Source: an uncultured Candidatus Binatia bacterium
GTDB lineage: Bacteria; Desulfobacterota; Binatia; UBA9968; CAXXLF01
Length of the DNA: 64,000 nucleotides
Reading direction: 5' to 3'
Assembly (NCBI GenBank): GCA_965218425.1
Contig: OZ244621.1
Location: 2,080,001-2,144,000 of the forward strand
Shown here: piece after piece, positions 1,630 through 28,260 of the stretch
How positions within the stretch are numbered: the stretch's first letter is position 1
How the letters are laid out: every line of letters starts with the position of its first letter
Position numbers and translations under genes: made by a program
Notes under the pieces: model-generated
Database searches by the model: none
What the model saw: only the letters and a program-made list of their open reading frames with translations
What the model was told of the DNA's origin: nothing

Positions 1630-1664
1630 GCTCGGGTCCAATTGGTATTCAATCCCGGGCAGGT

Positions 1665-2161: not shown

Positions 2162-2267
2162 GAGCTCATGGGTATTTAGCCAGGTGACCTAGCCGGCCAC
2201 CTTCGGGTGGAGCCCTTCTGAGCGCGGTTAAGGGGGGCTCTGCCTTGTTCCTGTGCCCGTGCTTTTC
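2162..2267 (+). ncRNA. Candidate structured RNA or 5' leader upstream of archease-rtcB
   Basis: 5'/3' closing stems CATGGGTAT/GTGCCCGTG and AGCCAGGT/GCCTTGTT, C(UUCG)G hairpin at 2197-2210, 9-bp hairpin 2211-2239; TTGCCC..TATTAT promoter-like sequence just upstream. Confidence 0.35.
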
Positions 2268-2290
2268 AGGACTCACTCCTTGGATGTCTT

Positions 2291-4166: not shown

Positions 4167-4228
4167 CCAAGCCAATTTGATATTCGTTGAATTTTGGATT
4201 ACTGAATCCGGGTAAAGATGACTCGCGT

Positions 4229-4266
4229 CCTTCGAGAACCTCAGGACCCCGAGGGGAATCGAGAGG
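4229..4266. repeat. REP-like palindrome (CTTCGA...CTCAG...TCGA family), copy 1
   Basis: CCTTCGAGAACCTCAGGACCCCGAGGGGAATCGAGAGG; related copy at 36687-36723, weaker copy at 34463-34493. Confidence 0.55.
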
Positions 4267-4302
4267 CAAAGACGCTAAGGGCGCAAGGATAGACATCATT
4301 AC

Positions 4303-4505
4303 AAACTCGAAATTTGAAACAAATCCAAATGATCAAAATATATAAATTTCCAAACGATCCCGTTTCGGATTTTGATTTTTTTTAGGTTTGGCCGGTTCGG
4401 TTTGTTTGAGATTTCGAGCTTCGGATTTCGGATTTTAGTTCGGGGGCATTTCAGCGCAAATAGCTTTGTTGAAGTTCTTTCGTAGAAAATTTTATCCATA
4501 AGAAT
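4303..4505. repeat. AT-rich palindromic dispersed repeat, copy A
   Basis: Imperfect inverted repeat 4303-4325 / 4399-4421 with 7-nt periodic tail (TTCGAGC TTCGGAT TTCGGAT); homologous to 16450-16700. Confidence 0.65.
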
Positions 4506-4566
4506 CTTGGGAACGAACCTGCGTAAATTTCGTTTATAACTAGAAAAAATGTAGGAGGAGAAGGAG

Positions 4567-4839
4567 ATGACCTATATTATTGCGGAGCCTTGCGTGGACG
4601 TCAAAGACGCGGCCTGCGTGGATGTATGTCCGGTGGATTGCATTCACCCGACCAAGGATGAGACAGAGGAATTTGAAGAAGTAAAGATGCTTTACATCGA
4701 TCCTGAGGAATGCATCGATTGTGGAGCCTGTGAGCCCGTTTGTCCCGTGGAGGCAATCTTTGAAGAGGCCGCAACACCAGAGAAGTGGAAAAACTACATT
4801 GAAATAAATTCAGAGTGGTACCAGAAGAAAAAAGGCTGA
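4567..4839 (+). CDS. Ferredoxin (7Fe/8Fe dicluster, FdxA-like)
   Basis: [19 protein letters not shown] and [12 protein letters not shown]; strong AGGAG RBS. Confidence 0.92.
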
Positions 4840-4912
4840 GAGCGTTTGCTCAGCAACTCTCCGACCTGCCCATCTGAAGCCCCCATTAAAAACACATGCT
4901 AATTGGAGCCCG

Positions 4913-5761
4913 TCATTGGACGTGGCTCCAGGCGTGGTAGGAACTGCGCACCAACGGCCCCGATTCCACGTGCCGAAAGCCGAGCTTTTCTGCCTTCGTC
5001 TTGAGTTCCTGAAACTCATGGGGGAAAACGTACCTTTCCACCTTCAGCTGATCTGTGGAAGGTCGAAGGTACTGCCCCAGGGTGACGATATCACAGTTCA
5101 TCTGCCTCAGATCCTGGAGGGTGACCATAACCTCTTCAAGGGTCTCGCCCACCCCCAGCATCAATCCCGACTTGGTTAGTATTCCTTCCCGCATTTCTTT
5201 GGCGGCCTTTAGGATGTCCAGCGAACGCCGGTAACAGGACCCCGGCCTAACCTTTTTGTAGAGTCGAGGAACGGTCTCGATATTATGGTTCAGTATATTG
5301 ATCCCTGAGCGAACCACTGTCTCTAGGGCACGCCGGTCTCCCTTGAAATCTGGAATGAGCACTTCCACACGAATCCCGGGATTAAGGTTTTTGATCCAAA
5401 AGACAGTCTTGGCAAAATGGGTTGAGCCTCCGTCGGGAAGATCGTCCCTGTCCACGGACGTCACCACAATATGGCCTAAGCCAAGGTCTTTGACCGCAAG
5501 GCCGACTTTTCGAGGTTCTTCCGGGTCCAAAAGGCTCGGCTTGCCTTTGCTGATGGCGCAAAAGCGGCAGCCGCGGGTGCAAATATCTCCGAGGATCAGG
5601 AACGTGGCGGTGTTGTGCTCCCAGCATTCACCTGCGTTGGGGCAATGTGCCTCTTCGCAGACGGTGTGGAGGTTGTGCTTTCTCAGAATTCGCTTGAGGC
5701 GGAGGTAGTGGGCGCTGCCCGGGGCTTTGACTTTGATCCAATCCGGATGTCTTCGTGGCAT
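4913..5761 (-). CDS. lipA: Lipoyl synthase
   Basis: CEEAHCPNAGEC, CTRGCRFC radical SAM motif, VRSSYHA. Confidence 0.96.
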   Translation of the reverse strand: MPRRHPDWIKVKAPGSAHYLRLKRILRKHNLHTVCEEAHCPNAGECWEHNTATFLILGDICTRGCRFCAISKGKPSLLDPEEPRKVGLAVKDLGLGHIVVTSVDRDDLPDGGSTHFAKTVFWIKNLNPGIRVEVLIPDFKGDRRALETVVRSGINILNHNIETVPRLYKKVRPGSCYRRSLDILKAAKEMREGILTKSGLMLGVGETLEEVMVTLQDLRQMNCDIVTLGQYLRPSTDQLKVERYVFPHEFQELKTKAEKLGFRHVESGPLVRSSYHAWSHVQ

Positions 5762-6396
5762 AGCTTACCAATCCCTGCGTAACGAAATCGCGTGATGAAG
5801 CATTCGATGAAAGCCTCCTTTACCTTTTCCAGGTCAACCTCTTCTCCTAACTCGCGGTTCATGGATGTGACTTCGGCCCAGGGGAGACCACAGGGGATAA
5901 TCCGTTTGAAGTAAGTGAGATCGGAATTCACGTTTAAAGCTGCCCCATGATAGGTGACGCCCCTGCGCACGGCAATGCCAATGGAGGCGATTTTTTTGTT
6001 TTCAATCCATACCCCTGTCCAGGGATGACGCCTGGTGGCCGAGATGCCGAATGCCTTAAGTGTCTGGATGAGCGTCGTTTCGAGATTACGAAGGTAGGTG
6101 TGAACCTTTCTTCGAAGAGTGGATTTGAGGTCCACCAGGGGATAGACCACCAACTGGCCGGGACCGTGATAGGTGATGTCTCCTCCCCGGCCGGTTGAGT
6201 GAACGGGCACCTCACCCGGATCCAGTAGATTTTTCACTTTGCCCCCAAGGCCAATGGTATAAACATGAGGATGCTCGACCAACAGGAGGGTGTCTGCAAG
6301 TTGACCGCTCTGCTTCTGTTTGAGGAGATTTTCCTGAACAGACCGCGCGGCCGCATATTCCAACTGGCCAAGGTCATTGACGAGAAGTGTTTGCAT
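5683..6396 (-). CDS. lipB: Lipoyl(octanoyl) transferase
   Basis: EHPHVYT, RGGDITYHGPGQLVVYP, KIASIG, IIPCG; ATG at 6396 chosen; 3' end overlaps lipA by 79 nt. Confidence 0.94.
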   Translation of the reverse strand: MQTLLVNDLGQLEYAAARSVQENLLKQKQSGQLADTLLLVEHPHVYTIGLGGKVKNLLDPGEVPVHSTGRGGDITYHGPGQLVVYPLVDLKSTLRRKVHTYLRNLETTLIQTLKAFGISATRRHPWTGVWIENKKIASIGIAVRRGVTYHGAALNVNSDLTYFKRIIPCGLPWAEVTSMNRELGEEVDLEKVKEAFIECFITRFRYAGIGKLCHEDIRIGSKSKPRAAPTTSASSEF

Positions 6397-6547
6397 CAAA
6401 TTAGGACCACAGGAAACCAAGGATTGTGTAACCTAAATCATGTCGTGGAAAAATTGCAACAATTGCGTGTTCTCGTCGTGCAATGCAGCAACCCACCCCA
6501 AACGGAAGGGAAGCTATGGGAGGGAGATTGGATGTTCGAGGGGGAGC

Positions 6548-7483
6548 CTACATCAACTCTTTGATCAGGGACTTGGCGTCTTCTTGGGAGATTCCCAATG
6601 AGCGACGTGCCATGGGCCCATCCGCCAGGACCGGTTCGAGCTGATCCAGCGCGGGTAAATCCTCGCGCTTCCAGAATAGCCCTATGGGGATCTCATCGCC
6701 CCACATGTAGGCCTTTTCCATTGCGGCCTTGAAATCTTGTGGGTCGTGTCCCATATCTTCGAGCTTTCGGGCGCGCTGTTTGAAAAAATCATGTCCGTTG
6801 TCAAGGTTGTAGGTTACGCAGGGGCTGAAGGCGTCGATGAGGGCAAAGCCTCTGTGCTCAATGCCTCCCTTGATAAGTTCGGCCAGGTGTTTGACCTGAC
6901 CCGTGTAACCTCGGGCGACGTATGTGGCCCCAGCCGCAATGGCGAGGGGAATCGGATTGATTGGATTCTCTACGCTTCCAAACGGTGTGCTTTTGGTGCT
7001 CATTCCCTTGATGCTGGTAGGCGAGATCTGGCCAGTGGTCAAACCATAAATTTGGTTGTCCATGACGATGTAGGTCAAATCCGCGTTTCGTCGCATGGTG
7101 TGAACGAAGTGGTTGCCCCCGATGCCATATCCATCACCGTCTCCGCCGGCGGCGATGATCTTGAGTTTGTGATTGGCCAACTGGGCGCCCGTGGCCACCG
7201 CCAGGGCTCGTCCATGGAGAGTGTGCATGCCATAGGCGTTGACGTAACCTGGCAAGTTCGATGAGCAGCCAATGCCGCTCACGGTCATCACCTCGTGGGG
7301 GTGAAGCCCCAACTCCACGATGGCTTGTTTAAGGGCGACGAGCACTCCGAAGTCGCCGCATCCGGGGCACCAGTCGGGTTCAACCAATCCTTTGAAATCT
7401 TTGACGGTTAGTTTGGGCCGTTGCAGTTGCGACCCTGTCGGCCCCCCTGCTCTGCTTTCAATTTCTGCCATGGGCGTGCTCAT
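6548..7483 (-). CDS. 2-oxoacid:ferredoxin oxidoreductase beta subunit
   Basis: WCPGCGDF, SGIGCSS, GDGD...N TPP-binding motif, YGLTTGQISPT. Confidence 0.93.
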   Translation of the reverse strand: MSTPMAEIESRAGGPTGSQLQRPKLTVKDFKGLVEPDWCPGCGDFGVLVALKQAIVELGLHPHEVMTVSGIGCSSNLPGYVNAYGMHTLHGRALAVATGAQLANHKLKIIAAGGDGDGYGIGGNHFVHTMRRNADLTYIVMDNQIYGLTTGQISPTSIKGMSTKSTPFGSVENPINPIPLAIAAGATYVARGYTGQVKHLAELIKGGIEHRGFALIDAFSPCVTYNLDNGHDFFKQRARKLEDMGHDPQDFKAAMEKAYMWGDEIPIGLFWKREDLPALDQLEPVLADGPMARRSLGISQEDAKSLIKELM

Positions 7484-7492
7484 GATTTCTCC

Positions 7493-9280
7493 TCAAACTG
7501 TAATCTCGTGAACCGGTACATACTGCGTGGATTTGCCGGCAAGAATCTTTTTCACCCCGTCCACAATATGATGGGGCATGAATGGCTCGCCGTCGTACTT
7601 CCGGATGTGGCCATCCGCCTCGATGCCGGTCTCTGACCTGAGATACCTGGCAAATTGGCCGCTATAGTTGTTTTCGACGATGATGGTTTTTTTACTCTTG
7701 GAAAGAATCGAGACGATTGCCTTGGCATGAAGGGGAACGATCCACTTGATTTGAAGATGGTTGGCGACGATCTTTTCTTCTTTGAGTTGCTCCCATGCTT
7801 CGCGCATGACACCTTCGGTGGATCCCCACCCAACCAGGGTTACATTGGCTGTGGCGGGTCCGAACAGTTTGGGCGCCTTCAGCAGCGGAAGAACCCCCTT
7901 CATTTTACGCATGCGTTTCTCGTGGCTGGCCTGCCGCTTGTGGGGATTGGTGAATTCATCACTGATGAGCACGCCGTCTTCATCGTGATCATCGGTGGCC
8001 ACCACATGGACATAGCCGGGTGTTCCAGGAAGGGCGCGCGGCGATATGCCGCTCTTAGTGAGGAGGAAACGCTTATACCCGCCGTTCGCCGCAGGCGTAC
8101 TACCGTTGAGTCCAATGACTTCACCACGGTCGATGGGGACGTTGAAGTCTAAGTCTGCGGGATCCACGCTGGACCGCCCTTCGGAAAGGAGGAGATCGGT
8201 GAGGATAATGCCTGGGCATTGAAATTTGTCCACCAGATTGAAGAGCTGGGGGACTGTTTTGAAACAATCGGGGATATTGGTTGGTGCAACGATGATTCTA
8301 GGATAGTCTCCCTGACCGGCCCCCAACGCCTGCCAGAGATCACCTTGCTCGGTCTTCGTGGGAACGCCGGTGGCCGGGCCCGCTCGTTGGACATTGATGC
8401 AGACTAGAGGGATCTCCATCATTGATGCTGAGCCGAGTCCTTCGGTCATGAGGGCGAAACCGCCCCCCGAGGTGGCGCACATGGCACGGCAGCCTGCGTG
8501 TGCGGCACCCGTTGCCATATTGACAACTCCCAGTTCGTCTTCCACCTGCCGCACCATGATCCCCAACTGGCGGGCGTGTCGTGCCATCCAGTGGAGAACT
8601 CCGGTTGAAGGACTCATGGGATAGGCGCAGTAAAATTTCACACCAGCCGCCGCACCGCCCATGGCCAGGGCTTGATTGCCCTCGAAAAACGCGAGCTTTT
8701 TGCCGGTATCAGGCAGGGTAAAGGGAAACGGTTTGAAATGTCGAGCGGAATAATCGTAACCTGCCCGCGCCACCCCGACGTTTTCATCCACCACAGCCTG
8801 CCCTTTTCTTTTGAATTGGAGGGTGAGGATCTCCTCGAGGATACTGAAGTCAACCCCGATGAGTTGTAGGACGGCGGAAAGGGCAATGGTGTTTTGGACC
8901 AAGTCTCCCTTAATGGCAGGAGCCAGTTCCTTGACCGAGAAGGGACAGAGCTGTGCTCCTTCGTTGGGGGTTCCCGGTTTGATTTTGTCGCTGTTGAAGA
9001 GGATCGTGGATCCCGACTTCATGAGTCTGAGATGGCGATCCATGGTGTCCTGGTTTAAGGGAATCAGCACGTCGAGTTTGTCTCCCATGCTGAGCACGGG
9101 TTTGTCGCTGGTACGGAGCGTCAGAAAGATATGGCCGCCGCGAATAATTGACTGGTAGGCGTTGTAAGCGTTTAGGTGAAGTCCGCGGCGTACGAAAATC
9201 CGTGCCAGGATATCTCCAGGCGTTGCAATTCCCTGTCCGGCCGCGCCGCCGATTGCAATGGCAAGATCAACTTTGCTCAT
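7493..9280 (-). CDS. 2-oxoacid:ferredoxin oxidoreductase alpha subunit (gamma-alpha fusion)
   Basis: GGAAGQG, IRGGH, YPMSPST, QVEDE, TSGGGF, QRAGPATGVPTKTEQGD; ATG at 9280 with AAGGA RBS. Confidence 0.93.
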   Translation of the reverse strand: MSKVDLAIAIGGAAGQGIATPGDILARIFVRRGLHLNAYNAYQSIIRGGHIFLTLRTSDKPVLSMGDKLDVLIPLNQDTMDRHLRLMKSGSTILFNSDKIKPGTPNEGAQLCPFSVKELAPAIKGDLVQNTIALSAVLQLIGVDFSILEEILTLQFKRKGQAVVDENVGVARAGYDYSARHFKPFPFTLPDTGKKLAFFEGNQALAMGGAAAGVKFYCAYPMSPSTGVLHWMARHARQLGIMVRQVEDELGVVNMATGAAHAGCRAMCATSGGGFALMTEGLGSASMMEIPLVCINVQRAGPATGVPTKTEQGDLWQALGAGQGDYPRIIVAPTNIPDCFKTVPQLFNLVDKFQCPGIILTDLLLSEGRSSVDPADLDFNVPIDRGEVIGLNGSTPAANGGYKRFLLTKSGISPRALPGTPGYVHVVATDDHDEDGVLISDEFTNPHKRQASHEKRMRKMKGVLPLLKAPKLFGPATANVTLVGWGSTEGVMREAWEQLKEEKIVANHLQIKWIVPLHAKAIVSILSKSKKTIIVENNYSGQFARYLRSETGIEADGHIRKYDGEPFMPHHIVDGVKKILAGKSTQYVPVHEITV

Positions 9281-9776
9281 GGTTGTTTCCTTCAAATAGC
9301 GACCGATTTCCAGTGCAGGAGGCCGGTCCCTTCTCGTTAATACAATTTTGAATGAATACGTTCACTAGCCGTAGGCGGGTCCTAAATAGTTGGTAGTCTT
9401 TCCCACCGCTCTATCCCCAGGGAAACCGTAACCGCCCCGATAACCAACCTGTTAGCTTATAGCACTAAATTCGGTAAGCCCCAACAACTTTAGGGCCCGT
9501 TTTCAGGCACTTCCCATTCTTTATTCCTGATGGCTTACTTTTTCAAGGGGAATCGACGAAAACTTAATTATATTTACACTAACGCGAGGCGTGATGGTTA
9601 GGTTCCCTGCCTGTGGATAACTAACCAATTTAGCCCTCGTTGTCGCTATATCCTTAGCAGGGAAAGAAAGTATCACGATCCACCTTTGCAAGCCTACTTC
9701 GCCCTTTGCTCCTTGACTTGGTAGTTTGGCGGGATTATTTAGAAGTTTAAATCCGATTAGGAAAGAAGATCTATTT

Positions 9777-9980
9777 ATGACCGGAACGATTAAGAAACTG
9801 GCGCGGGATAAAGGTTTTGGCTTCATTGTCCCCGATGATGGCGGCGATGATGTGTTTTTTCATCGGGGCAGTCTAGCTCCTAGAGGCCAATTTGAGGATA
9901 TCGACGAGGGGGACAGCGTACAGTTTCAGACTCGTAAAGGTGAAAAAGGTCCGGTGGCTTTTGATTTAAAAGTTCGATAG
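9777..9980 (+). CDS. Cold-shock domain protein
   Basis: MTGTIK...KGFGFI...DVFFH RNP1/RNP2 motifs, KGPVA. Confidence 0.92.
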   Translation: MTGTIKKLARDKGFGFIVPDDGGDDVFFHRGSLAPRGQFEDIDEGDSVQFQTRKGEKGPVAFDLKVR

Positions 9981-10003
9981 CAAACGCCAAAGGAGGCTTA
10001 GCC

Positions 10004-10489
10004 ATGGAGGAAGGCGCGAAAAAGACGGCATTGCGCATGATCCCGTATGGGATGTTCGTTTTGACTACGAAGGACGGTGACGGGAAAGATGTGAGCGCGG
10101 CCACCATTAACTGGGCGACACAGACTTCGTTCAAGCCGCCCCTGGTGGCCATTGGGGTCAAGGCCGACTCCGGTGTCCACCGGCATATCAAAGGCACCAG
10201 CGTCTTTGCTGTTAACGTGATTGGAAAGGATCAAAAAGATTTGGCCTTTAACTTCTTCAAACCTCACCAAGTTCAGGGGGACACCATCGGTGGCGAGAAA
10301 TTTCAGCTTGGTAAAGAAACCGGTTGTCCGTTGCTGCTAAATTCACCTGCATGGTGGGAGTGCAAGGTGGTGGGGGAAGTGGCAAAGGGAGATCATACCC
10401 TGTTTGTGGGGGAAGTGGTGGATGCAGGTGTGCGACGGGAGGACCAGACAATTCTGATGCGAGACCACGGCCTTAACTACGGTGGTTAG
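10004..10489 (+). CDS. Flavin reductase-like FMN-binding protein
   Basis: ALRMIPYG, SFKPPLV, GDHTLFVGEVV; AGGAGG RBS. Confidence 0.9.
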   Translation: MEEGAKKTALRMIPYGMFVLTTKDGDGKDVSAATINWATQTSFKPPLVAIGVKADSGVHRHIKGTSVFAVNVIGKDQKDLAFNFFKPHQVQGDTIGGEKFQLGKETGCPLLLNSPAWWECKVVGEVAKGDHTLFVGEVVDAGVRREDQTILMRDHGLNYGG

Positions 10490-11366
10490 GTGGGCCCGCC
10501 CCGTTGCGATCGGATGGCCAGCTTGGTTGCAGCAAATGCCATTGGGTCGGGGCTTCCCGCACCATGGCTTCAAGAGCATGGGCGAGGCGTTGAGTTCGTA
10601 TTCGTAGGCGCTGTTCGAGACTTCCTGTGGTGGCTGGTTCAAGGGACGGGTAGACAACGGTCCGGTGGCCACACTCGGGTTGAAAATAGACAGCCAGGGG
10701 GAAAATAGGGGCCCCTGTCAGTTGTGCCAATGTGGCCGGGCCCGCGGGGAGCGTGGTTTCCTCGTTAAAGAACTGGACGGGGACTCCGGTGCCGGTGACG
10801 TCGCGATCGCTCAGGAGCGCCACCGCTCCTCCGGCCCGCAATCTCTTCACTAAAGCCCATGTGGAGGTGCCGCTTTCATCCGCAAAAAACACCTCGATTC
10901 CCAATTCCCTCTGCAACTCCACGACATATTCTCTAGTGCGTCGGCGGCCCGGGACCTGGACCACAACGGTGAGAGGGATCTGCTCCCGTAGTGCCACGGG
11001 TCCTGCCATGTCCCAGTTGCCCAGATGAGGGAAGGCCAGTATCATTCCCCGACCTAGGTCTCGAGCCTTGCGTAGTTGTTCGATTCCGTCAACTGTGATG
11101 TAATGGTCCACCTCCTTGACCCCGTGAGATCGGGTCCAGAATATCTCAGCCCAGTAGCGACCGTAATTGGCGAACACCTCTCTGGCTGCCTCACCGGGAT
11201 CGGCTCCGGATCCCAGCACCCGCCCCATATGTCGCATGGCCATTCGCATCCGTCGCCGGCAAAAATAGGAGGCAAGATAACCGCAGAAACGGCCCAATTT
11301 TATGGCAACAGGCTCAGACAGAAGTCCCGTCATGCCTGTTACGCTACGGATAAATAAATAATTCAC
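10473..11366 (-). CDS. PatA-like acyltransferase (phosphatidylinositol mannoside / lipid A acyltransferase family)
   Basis: YGRYWAE, LAFPHLGNWDMAG, LLSDRD...GVPVQFF.EETTLPAGPA, QWHLLQP.WPSD; GTG at 11366 chosen, start uncertain. Confidence 0.8.
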   Translation of the reverse strand: MNYLFIRSVTGMTGLLSEPVAIKLGRFCGYLASYFCRRRMRMAMRHMGRVLGSGADPGEAAREVFANYGRYWAEIFWTRSHGVKEVDHYITVDGIEQLRKARDLGRGMILAFPHLGNWDMAGPVALREQIPLTVVVQVPGRRRTREYVVELQRELGIEVFFADESGTSTWALVKRLRAGGAVALLSDRDVTGTGVPVQFFNEETTLPAGPATLAQLTGAPIFPLAVYFQPECGHRTVVYPSLEPATTGSLEQRLRIRTQRLAHALEAMVREAPTQWHLLQPSWPSDRNGAGPPNHRS

Positions 11367-11806
11367 AAGGTTAATCTCGTTAAGACCGTCGGGTCCCAAT
11401 CTAGTGGAAAGGCAGCAAGACGGTGAGGAAAGTGAGCCCTGAGATCGAACACATTCGATTTCCCTCGTACGGCCTGCTGAACTAACTCTATCCATATCAT
11501 ATTAGATCTTTGTTGACACCCACCAGGATGAGCAGGTAGTTTCCCGACTTGAACAGGTGGTTCTTGAAGTAAGTGGCCATAAGGCGACCGAGGGGTGAGT
11601 TCTGAAGAGCGCGGGCACAGGAACGTAGAGGTTGCGTTCAGGCCCGGGCGGCGAAAATCGCCGCCTTTGGAGTGGACAGGGTGGTGGCCTGCAAGGCACT
11701 GGCGCATTGCCCGGACTCGCAAGAGCTCGGCCCGAGGGTGCCCGGCTACATCATTTGTCTAGATACTGACGAACTCGATAGCTCAGTTAAAGGGAGGTTC
11801 TTCGTG

Positions 11807-13219
11807 ATGAAGATGTTTTTGGCAGGTCAGTGGGTAGAAAAACCGAGAGTGATTGAGGTGAAAAATCCCTACGACGGCACATTGATCGACACGGCGCCCA
11901 GAGGGGAAGGGTCCGATGTAGAACGTGCACTTGCCTTCGCCGAACAGGGGGCCAAGGTCATGGCGAGGCTGTCCGCCTATGAACGCTGGCGAATCCTCAG
12001 GAAAACGGCCGATCTGATTGCGGCGCGCACCGAAGAATTGGGACAGATAATATCGAAGGAAGAGGGGAAGATCATCGCCGAAGGTCGCGCAGAGGCTGGA
12101 CGAGCGGTGGAGACTCTTATGGGTTCGGCGGAGGAGGCAAAGAGGATCCATGGAGAGACCATCCCCCTGGATGGGGACCCAAGCGGTGTCAAAAAGCTAG
12201 GATTTACCCTGAGGGTGCCGTGTGGCGTGGTGGCGGCCATTAGCCCCTTTAACTTTCCCTTGAATTTGGTTTGTCATAAAGTTGGGCCAGCCCTGGCCGC
12301 GGGCAACTCGGTAATCATCAAGCCGGCAACGGATACGCCCCTCTCTGCCCTCAAACTCACCGAGATCCTCCTGGAAGCGGGGCTCCCCCCTGAAGGCGTA
12401 CAGTGCATTACCGGCCCGGGCGGCGAAATCGGTGATCGGCTGGTTTCAGATCATCGAGTGCGCAAGATTACCTTTACGGGCAGCCGGGACGTTGGGGAGC
12501 GGATTTGCCGCCTTGCGGGAATCAAGAAGGTGACCATGGAACTTGGTTCCAATTGTCCTTTGATCGTCATGCCGGACGCCGACCTGGAAAAAGTGGCTGC
12601 GGCCGTCGCTTCCACCGGGTATGCCAATGCCGGCCAGGTTTGCATTTCAACCCAGAGGGTCATCACGGCGGGCAAGGTCTATAGTGATTTTCTCAAAGTC
12701 TTAAATTCCAGGGTGGACGGCCTCACGACTGGAAACCAACTGGATGAAAAGACCAAGGTGGGTCCCATGATTCGTGAGGATGACGCCATCCGTGTGGATC
12801 AGTGGGTGCGGGAGGCCGTGGGAGGCGGGGCCCGCGTAACGGCAGGTGGGCGGAGACAGGGCGCCGTATACGCACCTACGGTGGTGGCCGATGTCAATCC
12901 GGAAATGCGAATTTCTTCCGATGAGCTGTTCGGCCCGGCGGTGGCGGTGACACCCTTCGAATCCATTGAGGAAGCCCTAGAGCTGGCAAACCGTACCGTC
13001 TACGGTCTGTCCGCCGGCATATTTACCGAAAACCTTGACTGGGCCATGAGATTCGCCCGGGAAGCGGAGTCGGGAAATCTTCACATCAACTGGGGCCCCC
13101 AATGGCGCGCGGACCTAATGCCTTATGGAGGGTTAAAGGATTCGGGATTTGGCAAAGAGGGACCCCGTTACGCCGTGGAAGAGATGACGGAACTAAAAAT
13201 GGTGGTCTTTCACCTATAG
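11807..13219 (+). CDS. NAD(P)-dependent aldehyde dehydrogenase
   Basis: SPFNFPLNL, KPA, FTGS, MELGSN, AGQVCIS (catalytic Cys), ELFGP, PYGGLKDSG; GGAGG RBS. Confidence 0.92.
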   Translation: MKMFLAGQWVEKPRVIEVKNPYDGTLIDTAPRGEGSDVERALAFAEQGAKVMARLSAYERWRILRKTADLIAARTEELGQIISKEEGKIIAEGRAEAGRAVETLMGSAEEAKRIHGETIPLDGDPSGVKKLGFTLRVPCGVVAAISPFNFPLNLVCHKVGPALAAGNSVIIKPATDTPLSALKLTEILLEAGLPPEGVQCITGPGGEIGDRLVSDHRVRKITFTGSRDVGERICRLAGIKKVTMELGSNCPLIVMPDADLEKVAAAVASTGYANAGQVCISTQRVITAGKVYSDFLKVLNSRVDGLTTGNQLDEKTKVGPMIREDDAIRVDQWVREAVGGGARVTAGGRRQGAVYAPTVVADVNPEMRISSDELFGPAVAVTPFESIEEALELANRTVYGLSAGIFTENLDWAMRFAREAESGNLHINWGPQWRADLMPYGGLKDSGFGKEGPRYAVEEMTELKMVVFHL

Positions 13220-19989: not shown

Positions 19990-20066
19990 CGGGGCGTAGC
20001 GCAGCCAGGTAGCGCACCTGCCTTGGGAGCAGGGGGTCGGCCGTTCAAATCGGCTCGCCCCGACCA
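19990..20066 (+). tRNA. tRNA-Pro(TGG)
   Basis: CGGGGCG acceptor, CCTGC-ct-TGG-ga-GCAGG anticodon arm, GTTCAAAT T-loop, CCA. Confidence 0.96.
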
Positions 20067-20139
20067 AACTTCAGTTGGCAGCAGGCAGGTTAAAGCCTGC
20101 TTTTGGTCTTCCGCCGTCTGCATCCTGCGAACTTATCTG

Positions 20140-20216
20140 GCGCCAGTAGCTCAGGTGGATAGAGCAACGGCCTTCTAAGCCGTAGGTCGGGGGTTCGAAT
20201 CCCTTCTGGCGCGCCA
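20140..20216 (+). tRNA. tRNA-Arg(TCT)
   Basis: GCGCCAG/CTGGCGC acceptor, ACGGC-ct-TCT-aa-GCCGT, GTTCGAAT, CCA. Confidence 0.96.
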
Positions 20217-20232
20217 AAATGGCAGGAGATGT

Positions 20233-20310
20233 GGTGAGTGTAGCTCAATAGGTTAGAGCACTGGACTGTGGCTCCAGGGGTTGAGGGTTCAAGTCCCTTC
20301 ACTCACCCCA
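20233..20310 (+). tRNA. tRNA-His(GTG)
   Basis: G-1 plus GTGAGTG/CACTCAC acceptor, CTGGA-ct-GTG-gc-TCCAG, CCA. Confidence 0.96.
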
Positions 20311-20341
20311 ATTTTTACCGTTCACCGCAGACGGGTGACCG

Positions 20342-21316
20342 CGGTGGCTCGCCGGCGTGGCGGTTTCTCGCAACGTGGGCGACGGCTCGTACCGCATAGC
20401 CAAGGACATGTCGAGCAGGCTTGAGGGCTCGCTGACGAGCGTGCACCCTTATCTGCGCCTGTCGGCGAACGAACGTCTGTCGTTGTGGGGCCTGTTCGGC
20501 CATGGGCAGGGCGAGTTGACGCTGGCCGCGGACCGGACCGGGGACGATATAAAGACCGACATCAAGATGACCATGGGGGCCTTGGGAGCGCGTGGCGTAC
20601 TTGTGTCGGCGAAAGAGACGGGGGGCTTCAAGGTCGCGGTGCGTGCGGACGCGCTGTTGGTGCGGATGAAGTCGGGCGCGACGCGGGACATACTGGCGGC
20701 GGAGACGGAGACGAACCGGCTGCGGCTGGCGCTGGAGGGCTCACGGGCGTTCGAGCTGACCTCGGGCGGGGCGGTGCTGACGCCGTTGCTGGAGGTTGGC
20801 CTGCGCCATGACGGGGGCGACGCGGAGACGGGGACCGGTGTGGAGCTGGGCGGGCGTGTCCGCTATGCCGACCCGGCGTGGGGCCTGACGATGGAGGCGC
20901 AGGTCCCCGGTCTGATCGCCCATAAGGACAGCGGCTACGAGGAATGGCGCGCAGGCGGCTCGATCCGTCTCTCTCCGCGGTCCGACGGGCAAGGCCTGTC
21001 GTTCAGCCTGCTGCCTTCCTATGGCGCGGCCGGCAACGGCGCCGAGCGGCTGTGGGAGCAGGGCATAGCGGCGAACGACCATACGCCGTCGGCCCGCCTT
21101 GAGGCGGAACTCGGCTACGGCCTGCCGGCGCTCGACGGCCTGCTGACGCCCTATGGCGGGCTCGGGCTATCGGAGGGCGGCGACAAGAGCTACCGCGCAG
21201 GCGGTCGCTTCGTGCTCGGCCAGATGCTGGAACTCAGCCTCGAAGGCAACCGCCGCGAGGGCGCGGCTCGCGCTCCCGAGCACGGCCTCGCCCTGCGCGC
21301 GGGTGTGCGCTGGTAG
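20342..21316 (+). pseudogene. 5'-truncated autotransporter beta-barrel domain
   Basis: RWLAGVAVS...LTSVHPY...GLRHDGGDAETGTGVELGG...LEAELGYG...C-terminal VRW; frame closed upstream by TGA about 25 nt after tRNA-His; no signal peptide or passenger; much higher GC than flanks. Confidence 0.75.
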
Positions 21317-21679
21317 GCGCACGCCCCGGCCGCAAGCATCCGGGCCTTGGGCGCACGGGCGTCTCGCCGCGTGCCCGGTCTGTTTCACGGCGGGGGGCGC
21401 GCCCTTGTTCACGGCCCGGGTGATCTGCATCGGGCTGTGGTGGGAAGGCTTCGGTACCTGCAAAACAGTCCCGAGATGGTTCGCTCGTTGTTTCCGGCGC
21501 CCGATACCTGCTTACCCCTAAGCCGCATAGTCCCTAAATTGCGGACTCCTTAGCAACACTGCCGCTTACTGCTCTGTACAGAACTGTGTCGGATTTTCGT
21601 TTCCATCGGTCTTTGAAAATCCTGACAGGCGTGCTAAAAAATTGGACTCGCAAACAAACTTGACCGTTGGACGCGTCAT

Positions 21680-21755
<76 letters not shown>

Positions 21756-22376
21756 AATTTCCAGCCGCCAGCTTTGGCGGTCTTTTAGTTAACGCGAGCC
21801 CCCGTGGATTGCCTTTTCGGGGACTTGTCCTATCTGGCGCTTCTTCAAGCACTTGCGCCGCTCCACACATAATCCCCGATTCTCTGTCTCGAAAATAAGC
21901 TTCTGGAGTGCACTTGCAACCGGGGGGGTGCGCACTGATATCTAAAATATCATTTACTGATTCTCCTATCCTCCTTTTTTCGAGCCGCCTTGTTTAACAC
22001 CCCGGTTGCATACGGTCACCCGAAATCGCTATCCCCCAGTAAACAACGATGGTGACCGAAGTCTCGATACCAGAAGGCGGCCAGCTCCAGTGGGAGGGGC
22101 TTCGGTCCTTTATATCATCATGACCGTCCCCTCCTGGGGCGTCTGAGATGCAGGTTGGCCGGGGCGACTTAGGCGACTGCCTAACTAACCCCCAGGGAAG
22201 GATTGACGAACACAGGATCCAGCTTCAGATCCTCAGTTTTTCGTTCCCCAATCCCGGACAGGACGTCTTCATTAAATGTCTATTATTACCAAAATGGCTT
22301 GTGGTGCTCTCGTAGTGGGCTGTAGCGGCGTTTCTCCAGTAACAAGAGGAAGTCCGTCATAATCGCCCAATGCTCG

Positions 22377-22405
22377 TTGATGAGAGACTCAGGTTCGCGT
22401 ATGCT
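22377..22405 (+). promoter_or_regulatory. Putative sigma70 promoter of the herA-nurA-MTase operon
   Basis: TTGATG-17-TATGCT, about 250 nt upstream of the herA start. Confidence 0.45.
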
Positions 22406-22634
22406 ATCGTAGTTGAGAATCGTGCGGGCACCGACACAAGCGGAACGCTTCCCCGCATGCGGCGTACTGCTCAGGGTGTGCGAGACCCGGGGCTAACCAC
22501 ACGCTGCAGGACTCCTCCCCCGCGCTGGCACCTGGGCGGTCCGGAAATCACCGGGCTACCTTCCAGCAACAGAGACCGCATCGACCGGGGCCGCTGTGGC
22601 ACCACGGACGGAGCCGGACACGGTTAGTTAGTCG

Positions 22635-24776
22635 TTGGCGATGGAGGACGATGAGGCTATGGCAATGAATACAGTCGATGAATCCGGCATTCTGGATCAT
22701 CTCGTAAAGGATGCGGGAAACTCCAAGGACATGAAAACGTCCTTTCGCGAGCGCTCGACAAGAGTCGGGGCGGTCTACACGATGACTTACAACCGAGCAA
22801 CGGTCGCCATCTACGACTTCGACCGCGAAAAGGCAGGCGGACTCCCCAAAGGCGGCTTTCTCATGGCTGCCAAACAGAGAGGGGATGAGAGCTTCATCTT
22901 GCTTCGGATTCTGAAGGAGGCTAGGCTCCCGAACACGACGGCCAACGATCAGACCCGCCAGCAAAGCGTTGAAAGCACCGCGAACGAGAGGCCGTGGCCA
23001 GAGGCATTGGACCCTTGGATGAAAGATCGGATGTCCATTCATGGAATCGAATGCCGCCTGCTCGGTACTTTCACTGCGGCGGAGGGCAGAGGGTACCAGT
23101 ATGCAGAAGACACTGACAACTACTTTGCTGTGAACGACTTGATGGTGTGGAAACCAGACCAGAAAACCCTTGACACGATCGTCAATTACCGGCATCGGCG
23201 AAATCCAATTTCAATGGGTGACAATCGCAGAAAGATCGGTCAAACCCGATTCGCGGCTGCCGAGAAGGACACTGCAACCAAGGCAGAGATGTGCCTGGAT
23301 CCGACAGACCTGCTCCAACGCCGGACCGTCTATCTGGGCATGTCGCGATCCGGGAAGTCGAACGCCATGAAGGTAACCGCGGAAGCGATCTATCAGCTCC
23401 GCGAGGCAAATCCGGAGAACAAAATTGGACAGTTGATCTTCGACCCCAACGGGGAGTATGCGCAGGACAATCTGCAAGACGGTCCAGGACTCCACAATAT
23501 CCACAAAGCCATCAACCGGCAAAGGAAAACCGAAGTTGAGACGTATGGACTTTTCCAGACGCCTTCGGATCCGGATCGGAAGATCATGAAGATCAACTTC
23601 TTCGGTGATCCTATTCCTCAGCAGTGGACGACTGCAGGGGTAAAAGCCGCACTCGATCAGATGCTCGCAGGCCGCGAGATCATCCAGGAGATAATGGCAG
23701 ACGAGAGCGCCCGGTACACGACCGCGTTCCGCGAAGTGGATCTCTCCGTCCCACCAACAGCTGACGCGGATCTGGGCGCCCAAATCCGGTACCGGAGGGC
23801 CGTGCTCGTGCATCAGACGGCGCTGGCCGCTGCGGGACTGGATCCACCACAATGGTTTCCGTCCATCAGCGGGCTCTTCAACAAGGATTTAATCTCAGCC
23901 ATGAAGGGAGCTCAGAACCAAGATAGCGATCACAGCGTCAAATACGACCAAGCTTCAACGATCTTGGAGTCGGCAGGAAAGAAAAATGGCCAAGTATCTT
24001 GGAATCAGTTGGAGACAATTTTCAGTGCGCTCAACCAGTTCATCAGTGACAAGCAGAGCTACTACGTGCGCTTTGAGACCGATTACATTCACAAATCGAA
24101 GAGCGGGGATAATTGGGCCGATCCGAAATTCAAGAATCTCCTTCGCATTTTCGAGACTCAGAATGGTCCTCGTTCCTTTCAGCGGGCTTATGAGCAACAT
24201 GACCCAAACGCTGCCAGAGATTTCGCGAATGATGTAGTCGAAGACCTACAGCACGGGAAGCTCGTAATCGTCGACCAGTCCACCGGGGACCCGGAGCAAA
24301 ACCGAAAGGCGGCAGAACGCATTATGTGGAGAGTGTTCCGCGCGCAACAGGAAGCCTTCAGAAATGCCGCGGGCACTGGGGACCTGAACGCAAACAAAGG
24401 CCACATCCTGGTCTATGTCGAAGAAGCGCACAACCTGCTTCCCCGGGCAAACGCCGCCGACAACCTGCGAACGGTGTGGGCGCGTTCGGCCAAGGAGGGT
24501 AGCAAGATGAACATCGGAATGGTGCTTGCTACACAGGCGCCAAGCTCAATCATGCCCGAGATTCTCAGCGAAACGGACAACTGGATTCTCGCTTACCTGA
24601 ACTCGGAGAACGAGCGCAGAGTGATTTCTGGATACATGGATTTTGAAGATTTTCTGGAACAAATCGGACAAGTTAGTGAGCCCGGTTTCGTGCGAATGCG
24701 CACGTTATCCCTCGCATATACCGTGCCTGTTCAATTTGACCGGTTTCGCCTGGACATTCCGGGTGTACAGGACTGA
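22635..24776 (+). CDS. HerA/FtsK-superfamily ATPase (DUF87-type) with N-terminal HAS-barrel-like region
   Basis: Walker A YLGMSRSGKSN, IFDPNGEY, Walker B VYVEEAHNLL, KEGSK.NIGMVLATQ.PS; true start probably ATG 22659 or 22665 (GGAGG/GAGG RBS). Confidence 0.88.
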   Translation: MAMEDDEAMAMNTVDESGILDHLVKDAGNSKDMKTSFRERSTRVGAVYTMTYNRATVAIYDFDREKAGGLPKGGFLMAAKQRGDESFILLRILKEARLPNTTANDQTRQQSVESTANERPWPEALDPWMKDRMSIHGIECRLLGTFTAAEGRGYQYAEDTDNYFAVNDLMVWKPDQKTLDTIVNYRHRRNPISMGDNRRKIGQTRFAAAEKDTATKAEMCLDPTDLLQRRTVYLGMSRSGKSNAMKVTAEAIYQLREANPENKIGQLIFDPNGEYAQDNLQDGPGLHNIHKAINRQRKTEVETYGLFQTPSDPDRKIMKINFFGDPIPQQWTTAGVKAALDQMLAGREIIQEIMADESARYTTAFREVDLSVPPTADADLGAQIRYRRAVLVHQTALAAAGLDPPQWFPSISGLFNKDLISAMKGAQNQDSDHSVKYDQASTILESAGKKNGQVSWNQLETIFSALNQFISDKQSYYVRFETDYIHKSKSGDNWADPKFKNLLRIFETQNGPRSFQRAYEQHDPNAARDFANDVVEDLQHGKLVIVDQSTGDPEQNRKAAERIMWRVFRAQQEAFRNAAGTGDLNANKGHILVYVEEAHNLLPRANAADNLRTVWARSAKEGSKMNIGMVLATQAPSSIMPEILSETDNWILAYLNSENERRVISGYMDFEDFLEQIGQVSEPGFVRMRTLSLAYTVPVQFDRFRLDIPGVQD

Positions 24777-24781
24777 ACGCG

Positions 24782-26089
24782 ATGCCGTACGAGGATGAGC
24801 GGGCGGGTCTAGCGGCAATTCGGGCCATCGCCCAAAGTGGGGTAGTCGACGAGTTTCGTACCCGGATGGCTGAGCGCCATGACGGTACTTTGCCCGAGTC
24901 TCCGCCATTCCAACTCTGTTCTAGTAGAAGAGCGAGGACGCATGTTCTGGCTATTGATGGTTCGAATCTCTATGAGCCAATCCCCGGCGCCTTGCCGTGC
25001 ACCGAAGCCGGGCTGGTTTCCTTGGGCGTTGTGATCATCGATACACAAAAGCTTAGGACTTTGGAACGACTTCCGAACAGCGGGGCCGCGGATCCGAGGG
25101 AGCTGCAGAGCACGGAGAAAGGGGAGACCTGGGGAACGATGCTGCCTGGGCAGAATGCCGCGAGACAAGACGGAACCGGTCCGAGAATGTGGTTCAGGGA
25201 GATCATCAATCACGAACTTGAAAGTGCCAATCTTGGCGGTGAGAGCTTCGCCGAGACGCTGCACGCGCTTCTCCGCAATAGCAGAGAGGTCACATGTCCA
25301 GACCCGGACTGCGGGTCCCGAGTTCGCCTCCCCGAACCGGAACAGTCGGGCTCCTGCCCGAAGTGCAAAGGTCCCGTGTGGCTCGCAGACGGGCTGCGAA
25401 TTCACGAGCAGTTCGTTGAGAATCATCCGGTGGGCGAATGCCATGCGCGCTTCCGGGACACCCTGGAACTCCTCGCTCTTGTAAACTCACTCCGCCATCT
25501 TGTTAAGACCGAGCAGGGGCGTCGCGCCATTGCCAATACGGCATTCGTTATGGATGGTCCGCTTGCCGCCTTTGGGACCATTGCAGTTCTTTCCAAGGCC
25601 GTCAGGGGAGAACTGCGGCGTGTTCAGGAGGCGCTGGATGTCCACTCGTGTAGATCGGACTTGCTGGTAATGTCCGGTATCAAGAGCGGGCCGTTTGTGG
25701 AGCATGCTGCAGAACTCGACCGGGCACCTGAGCCTGGCCGGAGAATCCCACCGAACCACGTGTGGCTTCCAGACAATGGCTACATCCGGTCCCACATCAT
25801 TGCTGGAGCTTCGGAACAGTCGAAGCCGTGGGGCGAGCTGACGTATTTTGGGCGTCCTGTCGTCTTCAAGACTGTCAACGGCCAGCGACTCGTTCTCAAT
25901 CTTGCGCAGCCTGAAGCCGAACCACCACTCACTGAGGCCTCGCGCCCCCGCGTACTGGACGATGCCATTGCGACGGCGGGATCACTTGGTGTCGGCGCGC
26001 ACCAATTCCTTCCGCTTCGTCGCGTTCACGCCCAGGCCGCCATTCCGTTACGAAGCGGTACCGACCTCATCAAGAGTCTCGCACCTTGA
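24782..26089 (+). CDS. NurA-family nuclease with Zn-ribbon insertion
   Basis: VLAIDGS, FVMDGPL, GIKSG, TYFGR, C-terminal RRVHAQA; CPDPDC...CPKC insert; 5 nt after the HerA stop. Confidence 0.8.
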   Translation: MPYEDERAGLAAIRAIAQSGVVDEFRTRMAERHDGTLPESPPFQLCSSRRARTHVLAIDGSNLYEPIPGALPCTEAGLVSLGVVIIDTQKLRTLERLPNSGAADPRELQSTEKGETWGTMLPGQNAARQDGTGPRMWFREIINHELESANLGGESFAETLHALLRNSREVTCPDPDCGSRVRLPEPEQSGSCPKCKGPVWLADGLRIHEQFVENHPVGECHARFRDTLELLALVNSLRHLVKTEQGRRAIANTAFVMDGPLAAFGTIAVLSKAVRGELRRVQEALDVHSCRSDLLVMSGIKSGPFVEHAAELDRAPEPGRRIPPNHVWLPDNGYIRSHIIAGASEQSKPWGELTYFGRPVVFKTVNGQRLVLNLAQPEAEPPLTEASRPRVLDDAIATAGSLGVGAHQFLPLRRVHAQAAIPLRSGTDLIKSLAP

Positions 26090-27285
26090 CCCAGTCTCAG
26101 CGCATCGCAGAGTCGCGGGCCTCACCTTGGCCACGCGACACGGCAGCTCACCGATGGTATGGGTTCGGTCGCTACTACGCGATGTTTCCTCCCACATTCG
26201 CCTACGACGCGATCAGTGGTCTGACCCGATCCGGAGAGCCTGTTCTGGATCCATTCTGCGGGCGCGGGAACGGCCCTTTCACCGCAACCGTTTTGGAACG
26301 TCCCGCCCTGGGCATCGACGTCAATCCCGTGGCATGGCTCTTTACAGCCGTGAAGCTCGAGCCCGAAGCGAATCGAGACCGACTCCTGCGCCGCTTAAAA
26401 GAGGTCGCCCGCGCAACCCGGGCCCAGGACCGGCGCGGGCGGAGTCGTTTCGAAAGGATGGCATGGGCCCCTGATGTGCGGGCCTTCCTCAAGGCCGCCC
26501 GCCGTGAACTCGATTGGAGGCATTCAGTCACCGACCGCACGCTGATGGCCTTCATCGCGCTCCATATGCAGGACAAGCTTGGGGCCGGACTCTCAAATGG
26601 CCTCTGGCCAACTATCGCGTGCTCGCCCCGATATGCGGTTACCTGGTGGACCGAAAACGGTTTCCAGCGGCCTCCCAAAGTCGAGCCCGTGACTTTACTC
26701 GCGGACAAAATCATTCGTCGATACTGGTACGGGATACCGAAGCAAGCACCCGGATCGGTGGTGCTCTCCGACGCGCGCGACGCCCTACGGAGGAAATCTG
26801 CAATAAACGCAGGGCTTCTGATTACATCACCGCCTTACAATGGCGTTACTGACTACTGGAACGATCATTGGATTCGGCTATGGATCCTCGGGCACGACAT
26901 GCGAAAGGATTGGAAGCGTTCGTCGAGGCACGAGAACAAGGGGGACTACCAAAAGCTCATTCACAACGTTTTTCGGCAGGCGCTGCGACACCTCGCGAAC
27001 GACGCCGCTATTCTCGTACGAAGTGACCTGCGTCGGCAAACGGCACGGACTTGCCTAGAGGCCCTGCGGAAGACCTGGCCGCGCCGAAGACTGCTTTATC
27101 GGACCAGTGCGGCGCCTCATAAGGGGATCTCCATTTACCATGGGCGAGGAGGAAGCAGGGCGAGGGAATTCGATCTTCTGATTCCGGGCAAGCGGGGCGA
27201 AGCGTGGGGGGCAACCCACGGTTTCCAGCCATTCGAAGAGGAAGATCGTCAGGCCATGGATCTTGGTTACCCTTTACCGCCCTGA
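26086..27285 (+). CDS. Amino-DNA methyltransferase (N4-cytosine or N6-adenine)
   Basis: YYAMFP, motif I VLDPFCGRG near the N-terminus, motif IV ITSPPY downstream; TTG start overlaps the NurA TGA (TTGA). Confidence 0.88.
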   Translation: MTQSQRIAESRASPWPRDTAAHRWYGFGRYYAMFPPTFAYDAISGLTRSGEPVLDPFCGRGNGPFTATVLERPALGIDVNPVAWLFTAVKLEPEANRDRLLRRLKEVARATRAQDRRGRSRFERMAWAPDVRAFLKAARRELDWRHSVTDRTLMAFIALHMQDKLGAGLSNGLWPTIACSPRYAVTWWTENGFQRPPKVEPVTLLADKIIRRYWYGIPKQAPGSVVLSDARDALRRKSAINAGLLITSPPYNGVTDYWNDHWIRLWILGHDMRKDWKRSSRHENKGDYQKLIHNVFRQALRHLANDAAILVRSDLRRQTARTCLEALRKTWPRRRLLYRTSAAPHKGISIYHGRGGSRAREFDLLIPGKRGEAWGATHGFQPFEEEDRQAMDLGYPLPP

Positions 27286-27318
27286 TCCGGAGCATTGAAT
27301 CGACTGGCGCACTAAGGA

Positions 27319-27610
27319 GGTCAAGTCCCAGTTTCAGTTGAAACAGAGCACAGGCGGTTGAATGTGTCAGCTCGTCATGACGAGCTGTTTGATACTGGGC
27401 TTGGCTTGTATGGCTTGCCGGAGGGTCGGTTAGGTGGTGGTAGCCTTTGACCTGGCGCAGACGCGGTTCGATGTTGAGCAACGTCGTGGCTACCCCGGTG
27501 ACGCTGGGATGAGTTGGTCTAGCGCCGCACGTTATGCGTCAACTGCTGCAGGAGACTATTGATGTTCTCAGTTGGTACTGCGATAGGAATCTTCAGCATG
27601 GGCAGCGCGA
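27319..27610 (-). mobile_element. IS256-family transposase 3' relic with terminal inverted repeat
   Basis: Minus strand reads SYRSTN..ENINSLLQQLTHNVRR*TNSSQRHR/VATTLLNIEPRLRQVKGYHHL with a stop and frameshifts; IR-like GGTCAAGTCCCAGTTTCAGTTGAAA at 27319-27343. Confidence 0.7.
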
Positions 27611-28064
27611 GCCTTCATCGCTGGTGCCGCAGCTCCTCGACTTTGTGCGTGAACCCCTGCCGGCGCCATACGAGCGACGTCCCATCAGCAACGGGGTGAA
27701 CAGGTCGTTAACGACGACCCGGACATCCCAGTCCCCATGTCTCAGCAGCGGCTGATTTGACCCTGAAAGGCGGAAGTCGTCTTGACGCCGCGTCTGCTTT
27801 TGCTGACATAAGTCAGAATAGGGGGAATTGGCCTCAGCTTTGCTTCCGTCGCGGCGGACCTGCCCGACTTTCCATAAGCCTTTCAAATACAAGACGTTAT
27901 TCTCTCGGGCATGACGGTGAGTGGTTATGAAGAGAGGTGCACATGGCCCACCAAACACCAGCCTGATGATTCCCGCACCCATTGCCTCTTCCCTGAAGGA
28001 ATCTTAAGTGTTCATAAGAGGATTATTGTAAGTCGGAAAGGAGCTCTCAAAAAACAGGCGGTTC

Positions 28065-28177: not shown

Positions 28178-28260
28178 GCGAGAGTGGCGGAATTGGCAGA
28201 CGCACTAGACTTAGGATCTAGCGGGTAACCGTGGGGGTTCGAATCCCCCCTCTCGCACCA
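28178..28260 (+). tRNA. tRNA-Leu(TAG)
   Basis: GCGAGAG/CTCTCGC acceptor, CTAGA-ct-TAG-ga-TCTAG, variable arm, CCA. Confidence 0.96.

Follow-up and report, generated by a model that had tools for sequence, protein, structure and literature searches.

Why should a HerA-like ATPase, a NurA-like nuclease and a DNA methyltransferase be encoded together, in one tight run of genes between two tRNA genes of an uncultured Candidatus Binatia bacterium? The question is raised by positions 22635-27285 of a stretch of 64,000 nucleotides from contig OZ244621.1 of that organism (hereafter the window, meaning the whole stretch of DNA that was analysed). An earlier note on this DNA had read the three genes as a candidate restriction-modification (R-M)-like system, and sequence comparison supports that proposal through the linkage of the methyltransferase to the other two genes, the accessory context of the locus and the lack of a match to a named system. 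We consider it likely that the cassette is a predicted R-M-like defence system, self-contained and horizontally mobile, and the best reading of its parts, by analogy, would be a degrading module like TdpAB in which methylation replaces the phosphorothioation of TdpC.

Results

The trio consists of three open reading frames (ORFs) on the + strand, of 713, 435 and 399 aa, which together make a self-contained cassette of 4.65 kb: gene 1, a predicted HerA/TdpA-like ATPase (22635-24776, TTG start); gene 2, a predicted NurA-fold, TdpB-like nuclease with an inserted zinc ribbon (24782-26089, ATG start); and gene 3, a predicted N4/N6 DNA methyltransferase of the PF01555 family (26086-27285, TTG start). 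The ORF coordinates bear out the close spacing that had been described for them, with a gap of 5 nt between the end of the gene 1 stop (24776) and the ATG of gene 2 (24782), and a TTGA overlap in which the TTG start of gene 3 shares its last two bases with the TGA stop of gene 2. The true start of gene 1 is probably not the TTG but the ATG at 22659, because a GGAGGA box sits 9 nt 5' of the latter, and the product would then have 705 aa. Signals found in a promoter and terminator scan of the locus were at chance level only. All of the motifs that had been quoted for the trio are present in the translations (GMSRSGKS, DPNGEY, VEEAH and LATQ in gene 1; AIDGS, DGPL and the C-terminal histidine H416 in gene 2; DPFCGRG and TSPPY in gene 3), and their residues are invariant or nearly so among homologues. 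No membrane helix was predicted in any of the three proteins.

By sequence and by its model, the product of gene 1 is best described as a HerA-type ATPase whose closest solved relative is TdpA. It matches DUF87/HerA in Pfam (E 5.5e-9) and 13 HerA models in PADLOC, together with mad8 (E 4e-12), and its NCBIfam matches to HerA are far below threshold. TdpA is the best match among structures in the Protein Data Bank (PDB), both with the single sequence (E 3.4e-16) and with a profile (E 9.9e-27, 96.8 bits, the next HerA following at E 3.7e-13 and 51.9 bits). An AlphaFold (AF2) model with a pLDDT of 82.2 again has TdpA as its best structural match (Z 29.6, 527/574 residues aligned), and other HerAs align over about 440 residues with Z of 24-28, those of SIR2-HerA and DUF4297-HerA being the next best. 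The protein is composed of a HAS barrel, a RecA-like core and a helical insert at about residues 333-540. Across 27 sequences, G235, R238, G240, K241 and S242 are invariant in the Walker A motif GMSRSGKS (residues 235-242; 23337-23360, + strand), as are E596, E597, A598 and H599 in the Walker B region ILVYVEEAHN (residues 591-600; 24405-24434, + strand), and the ATQ segment downstream of Walker B is invariant or nearly so.

The assignment of gene 2 relies on structure, since its sequence profile gave nothing meaningful against PDB chains (best E 0.14, no solved structure found). Pfam NurA (PF09376) was matched with E 0.002 and 18.1 bits (17.2 bits in the genome search), under the gathering cut-off of 21, and neither NCBIfam nor the PADLOC (2023) models gave any match; some close homologues do carry a precomputed Pfam NurA label, and the protein atlas label is likewise NurA. 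With the AF2 model (pLDDT 77.3, pTM 0.80), the top Foldseek match is TdpB in the TdpAB-DNA complex (8wfd_G, E 1.5e-7), to which VIA-align superimposes 317/358 residues (Z 18.6, rmsd 4.2), as against Z of 10.6-12.4 for the NurAs of Sulfolobus, Deinococcus, Thermococcus and Pyrococcus. The family assignments made earlier for the trio thus hold at the level of Pfam for DUF87/HerA and N6_N4_Mtase, whereas that of NurA stays below threshold in sequence and finds its confirmation in the modelled fold.

Catalytic motifs support the same assignment. A 2026 review, in the part of its text available, lists a DG motif I, a DG motif II and a C-terminal AH motif for NurA, and AIDGS (D59), MDGPL (D258) and RVHAQAA (H416) of gene 2 fit motifs I, II and III. 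Across a diverse sample of the family D59, D258, K301, C172, C177 and C192 are invariant and C195 is kept in at least 90% of sequences; H416 is invariant among close homologues. The four cysteines form a putative zinc ribbon, C172-x4-C177 ... C192-x2-C195 (25295-25366, + strand), identified by cysteine conservation and modelled there with a pLDDT above 90. Taken with the model, gene 2 appears to be a NurA-fold nuclease with an inserted four-cysteine zinc ribbon and TdpB as its closest solved relative. Its full-length homologues, of about 435 aa, number in the hundreds (288 at E <= 0.001 among the candidates scored), and a profile built from 25 homologues retrieved 576 cluster representatives from 1.84 billion proteins.

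Gene 3 matches N6_N4_Mtase (PF01555, E 2.6e-9) in Pfam and type II methylase models in PADLOC (MTase_II, E 8.2e-18). In 25 sequences D55, P56, F57, G59 and R60 of the SAM-binding motif I, DPFCGRG (residues 55-61; 26248-26268, + strand), are invariant, as is every residue (T247, S248, P249, P250 and Y251) of the catalytic motif IV, TSPPY (residues 247-251; 26824-26838, + strand). When a profile was compared with solved structures, the motif I segment aligned to the C-terminal part of beta-class N4/N6 methylases and the SPPY segment to the N-terminal part, so the order of the motifs (I before IV) is permuted relative to that class. The best structural relatives sharing the TSPPY box include N4-cytosine methylases. 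An SPPY motif in amino-methyltransferases points to N4-methylcytosine (m4C), and because of this motif the enzyme probably methylates N4 of cytosine.

Whether the methyltransferase is a constant partner was asked in two collections: species-representative genomes, where 16 loci were found, and metagenomes, from which 80 loci were kept of 470 confirmed, all of a subfamily that shares only ~30% identity with the nuclease of the window. The trio was present in the same gene order in 16/16 genome loci, from at least three phyla (by title, 12 Dehalococcoidia, one SAR202-cluster bacterium, one Pseudomonadales, one Longimicrobiales and one unclassified bacterium). Among the metagenome loci with enough flanking sequence on the side or sides concerned, a HerA gene lay upstream in 67/68, a methylase gene downstream in 63/67 and both in 56/60, with junctions mostly of -4 to +5 nt. 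Three of the four loci that had no methylase ORF still contain methylase DNA, matched at full length in L066, nearly so in L037 and over the first ~115 codons only in L085; L089 had none. The co-conservation with a methyltransferase on which the R-M proposal depended is therefore borne out, and a methylase that is kept at nearly every locus argues for an essential role of this enzyme in the cassette. Additionally, pairwise identities of the three proteins correlate with r of 0.88-0.97 (59 loci, among which kin are not independent), which fits inheritance of the trio as one unit.

The cassette is patchily distributed across phyla, strictly co-inherited and horizontally mobile. A diverse profile found the gene 2 family in 3/400 other genomes of the phylum, and a search of 40 relatives gave no true orthologue of the nuclease of the window, only one weak partial match. 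The trio is also carried by an archaeal plasmid (Halorarius), and on the Deferribacter megaplasmid pDF308 (L114, locus 4950-10828) the order is methylase-HerA-NurA, with an IS200/IS605 tnpA-tnpB element splitting HerA into two ORFs.

The place of the cassette in this genome tells the same story of mobility. On its left the islet is bounded by tRNA-Lys (CTT; 21680-21755, + strand; ARAGORN and Rfam), and its conserved right neighbour is tRNA-Leu (TAG; 28178-28260, + strand; ARAGORN), syntenic with trigger factor in relatives. The two tRNA genes lie 6422 bp apart here vs 328 bp in a genome of the same genus (G001) and 341 bp in one of the same family (G002). In blastn comparisons, homology to both relatives breaks at 21756/21757 and picks up again at 28044, delimiting an insertion of 6287 bp (21757-28043) that neither relative has; it holds the three genes with ~880 bp upstream and ~760 bp downstream, both without a recognisable gene. 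Its GC skew, 0.009, falls beyond all values seen in 90 windows of equal size; outside the insertion the window has 0.118. The tRNA-Lys islet that had been postulated is thus real by the spacing of the tRNA genes, and the cassette was horizontally acquired and placed at a tRNA hotspot. No integrase was found in the islet, the repeat search gave no att-like direct repeat of the tRNA-Lys end, and an Rfam scan matched the two tRNAs and no other RNA family. Housekeeping genes flank the islet (RNase PH, Ham1, trigger factor, ClpP, ClpX, Lon and HU), and their annotation agrees with the claim that no restriction endonuclease, mre11/rad50 or sbcCD lies nearby (within about 10 kb for mre11/rad50).

Flanks of the other loci were scanned with Pfam (145 ORFs around the 16 genome loci, and 120/240 metagenome ORFs, from 30 loci), and they are unrelated between loci, with the exception, among the genome loci, of one close-relative pair. 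Defence or mobile genes occur within ~5 kb in 10/16 genome loci: an AAA_21/DUF4276 pair (L003), an integrase and a relaxase (L004), a D12 methylase (L007), a transposase (L008), Eco57I-type enzymes (L009:605-5752 and L015:1254-3827, the latter locus also with TIR-TPR), an IrrE-type peptidase (L010), HsdM (L012), AIPR (L013), and Macro and Uma2 (L016). At least 8/30 of the metagenome loci scanned hold such genes (GmrSD, Cas1, a Schlafen helicase, AAA_21, a ResIII-DUF3427 helicase, transposases and an integrase). These counts, which are a tally made without matched random loci and not a statistical enrichment, are suggestive of a defence or mobile neighbourhood. Together with the insertion and the 3/400 genomes, they place the family in an accessory context and not in one of core DNA repair, the setting that would have told against the earlier proposal. 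The flanks compared show no plasmid-maintenance or integrase gene that moves along with the cassette.

At L009 and L015 (2/16 genome loci) the Eco57I-family (type IIG) gene is large and immediately precedes the cassette in the same orientation, an arrangement that recalls an operon of Thermus ICEth1.

Discussion

The closest relatives of the motor and the nuclease belong to TdpABC, which, in the part of the literature available, is counted as the third R-M system based on phosphorothioate and has tdpC as its sole modification gene. Its TdpAB component is represented by solved entries 8wet, 8wfd and 8y1k, whose titles name TdpAB with AMPPNP and DNA. In both systems a HerA-type ATPase and a NurA-fold nuclease would make up the restriction half and be joined by one DNA-modification gene, and among solved structures gene 1 matches TdpA best and gene 2 TdpB. 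The cassette differs in that its third gene is a PF01555 methyltransferase and not a TdpC-type phosphorothioate gene, none of which was found among the housekeeping flanks either, so that the mark would be a methylated base and not a backbone sulfur. Identity is only 13% to TdpB and 21-22% to TdpA, the nuclease has 435 aa and a zinc-ribbon insert vs 358 aa in TdpB, and the hosts are not restricted to thermophiles. The TdpABC system of thermophiles was reportedly described by An et al. in Nat Chem Biol in 2025.

A second relative, likened here by family, is the ICEth1 operon of Thermus thermophilus HB27. As far as the available text of its report goes, it encodes the type IIG enzyme Tth111II/TthHB27I, a NurA-like protein (TTC1878, 377 aa), TdtA (TTC1879) and a PF01555 methylase (TTC1880, 410 aa), and TdtA, NurA and the restriction enzyme are needed for DNA donation, with minor effects of the methylase. 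The same three protein families thus occur in one operon, on horizontally acquired DNA beside a tRNA gene, whereas the order there is NurA-TdtA-methylase, a type IIG enzyme and an integrase are added, and the function demonstrated is DNA donation. Neither a type IIG enzyme nor an integrase of that kind is present in the 6.3-kb islet, and they stand beside the cassette only in some loci (L009, L015, L004 and L023).

Other systems share one aspect or another of this architecture. The canonical HerA-NurA pair of archaea, Deinococcus and Thermus likewise combines a ring translocase with a NurA carrying motifs I-III; the cassette differs from it in having no mre11/rad50 linkage, a patchy and mobile distribution, an obligately linked methylase and an inserted zinc ribbon. 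SIR2-HerA (Nezha) and DUF4297-HerA also couple a HerA hexamer to an effector for defence, but they have no modification gene, and the neighbour of HerA here is a NurA-fold protein and neither SIR2 nor DUF4297, on which ground membership in either was rejected. In ATP-dependent type I and III R-M systems a methylase marks self DNA and an NTP-driven translocase is coupled to a nuclease, an organization that the cassette would share, with the differences that its motor is a HerA/FtsK ring instead of an SF2 helicase, its nuclease an RNase H-like NurA instead of PD-(D/E)xK, and a specificity subunit is absent. MADS (mad1-mad8), in what is available of its description, combines methylation-associated self-marking with ATPase-nuclease modules and is similar in that respect. 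It was rejected as an identification, having eight genes vs three here, with gene 1 alone weakly matching (the mad8 hit given above) and the nuclease matching nothing in PADLOC. Comparative-genomics papers on BREX and Dnd discuss HerA/FtsK 'capture' systems, with 0 mentions of NurA in each. No name for a HerA-NurA-methylase system was found in PADLOC (2023), or in the available parts of the literature among the matches listed. The statement that the architecture has no named, characterised counterpart consequently stands as far as PADLOC models of the nuclease are concerned, and needs amending in that the motor and nuclease are closest to TdpAB and that an operon of similar families has been studied in Thermus.

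How could such a cassette work? Gene 1 would form a hexameric ring of the HerA/TdpA type that pumps double-stranded DNA using ATP, and the NurA/TdpB-type nuclease, probably a dimer capping the ring, would shred the DNA fed to it. Gene 3 would mark the DNA of the host with methyl groups, probably on N4 of cytosine, and this mark could protect self DNA. The most plausible way would be that the motor-nuclease stalls on it or is kept off, much as phosphorothioate is reported to act on TdpAB. Complex formation, DNA degradation, the methylated base and its site, the readout of methylation and antiviral protection are all elements that we infer. A methylation-based version of the TdpABC logic seems the most economical reading because the methyltransferase sits where tdpC would be. 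The feature expected of an R-M system is present, namely a methylase with intact SAM-binding and catalytic motifs that is linked to the nuclease in the 16/16 and 63/67 loci described above. What would be new is the pairing of TdpAB-type restriction with a different self-mark, methylation.

A bolder formulation, tentative and to our minds somewhat doubtful, is that the cassette represents a new class of R-M system without a site-specific endonuclease, in which a processive degradasome of HerA ring and NurA attacks any DNA onto which it can load. A dedicated methylase of unusual uniformity would provide the base methylation (probably m4C), which would be read during translocation as a stop, and the motor, not a recognition subunit, would discriminate self.

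Several observations weigh against interpreting the cassette as a methylation-based R-M system. HerA/FtsK-type rings contact mainly the DNA backbone, and for this reason the sensing of a base methyl group is less obvious than that of a backbone phosphorothioate. Most R-M methylases have a hypervariable target-recognition segment, and gene 3 differs in having none, with a column entropy of ~1-2.5 bits over its full length (77 homologues, past the unaligned first 20 residues). In the present genome the cassette is solitary, set amid housekeeping genes and outside any defence island, and 6/16 genome loci have metabolic neighbours only. On a Tolypothrix plasmid (NZ_CP050441.1; L103, locus 5920-12309) the HerA-NurA pair is followed by a gene for an 816-aa protein with an exonuclease domain and by no annotated methylase, in a PLSDB annotation that may be incomplete. 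Finally, experiments on an operon that combines these three families exist for ICEth1 only, and there the operon serves DNA donation according to the accessible text, with the methylase in a minor role.

This last point leads to an alternative in which the trio is a DNA-donation (transjugation-like) module, whose motor and NurA-like nuclease process chromosomal DNA and push it out for neighbours, the methylase being an accessory. We think this unlikely. The ICEth1 precedent, the type IIG gene upstream of the cassette at L009 and L015 just as in that element, and the integrase near the cassette in L004 and L023 all speak for it, but the window contains no restriction enzyme, integrase or other transfer gene, the gene order is unlike that of ICEth1, and an accessory role is ill-fitting for a methylase that is almost never lost. 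The lack of predicted membrane helices counts in the same direction, if to a limited extent, for TdtA has none either according to the available part of the ICEth1 paper. The notion of a housekeeping HerA-NurA pair for double-strand-break processing, next to an orphan methyltransferase by chance, seems highly improbable. It can draw on the loci with metabolic neighbours only and on the classical assignment of HerA-NurA to archaeal end resection, with studies in Deinococcus and Thermus, as given in the accessible portion of a review. Yet the gene is missing from close relatives, elsewhere in the phylum it is found in those 3/400 genomes, an insertion brought it in, its linkage to the methylase is strict and no mre11/rad50 lies nearby; moreover, the study of the Thermococcus (T. 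kodakarensis) HerA-NurA, which degrades both strands from DNA ends, itself argues, in the text available, against end resection and for the degradation of foreign DNA.

An R-M-like cassette could also be maintained for selfish reasons. Classical type II R-M systems behave as addiction cassettes, and a motor-nuclease with its methylase might be mainly a post-segregational killing pair that stabilises the DNA carrying it, with little antiviral benefit. The compactness of the cassette, its movement from phylum to phylum and onto plasmids, and the strict co-inheritance of its three genes would suit such a lifestyle. We nevertheless give it a small probability as the main explanation: no plasmid-maintenance or integrase gene accompanies the cassette, the window holds no remaining mobile backbone to be stabilised, and addiction is compatible with defence and not exclusive of it.

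If the R-M-like defence reading is right, the TdpAB-type motor-nuclease could be a general restriction chassis for different self-marks, phosphorothioate in thermophiles and methylation in a much wider family, one that reaches several bacterial phyla and at least one archaeon through its 576 cluster representatives. It would also raise the question of how a ring translocase or its nuclease senses a methylated base, and it would cast the 'DNA donation' operon of Thermus ICEth1 in a new light, perhaps as kin to a defence system, or the other way round.

Variant loci and the adjacent tRNA slot

Some loci depart from the common arrangement. L025 and L026 are the sole loci in which the nuclease and methylase genes are both present and do not abut, a 488-bp gap between them holding a small ORF on the opposite strand (L025:8389-8763 and L026:4352-4726). 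At L037 an RNase_T exonuclease ORF (L037:5266-6459) follows the disrupted methylase, and this locus and the Tolypothrix plasmid locus look like variant cassettes. A second gene of the DUF87/HerA type precedes the cassette HerA by ~400 bp at L052 (L052:2-967) and L053 (L053:336-2396). Among viral contigs, a close-family profile gave 0 matches and the subfamily profile two weak relatives of the nuclease (L105 and L106, IMG/VR, 166-1387; 28-29% identity), both at the very start of ~42-kb predicted provirus contigs, where they may be host flank or cargo. Nothing in these viral contigs points to a phage gene set.

The tRNA cluster that received the cassette has a second variable slot, between tRNA-His and tRNA-Lys. 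In the window this slot is 1.25 kb long (20326-21574) and encodes one ORF of 319 aa (20357-21316), which has no Pfam match, with a GC content of 0.65 over 20001-21000. Its counterpart in the same-genus relative (L112; G001:C2:339000-353000, reverse complement 796-11784) extends over ~11 kb.

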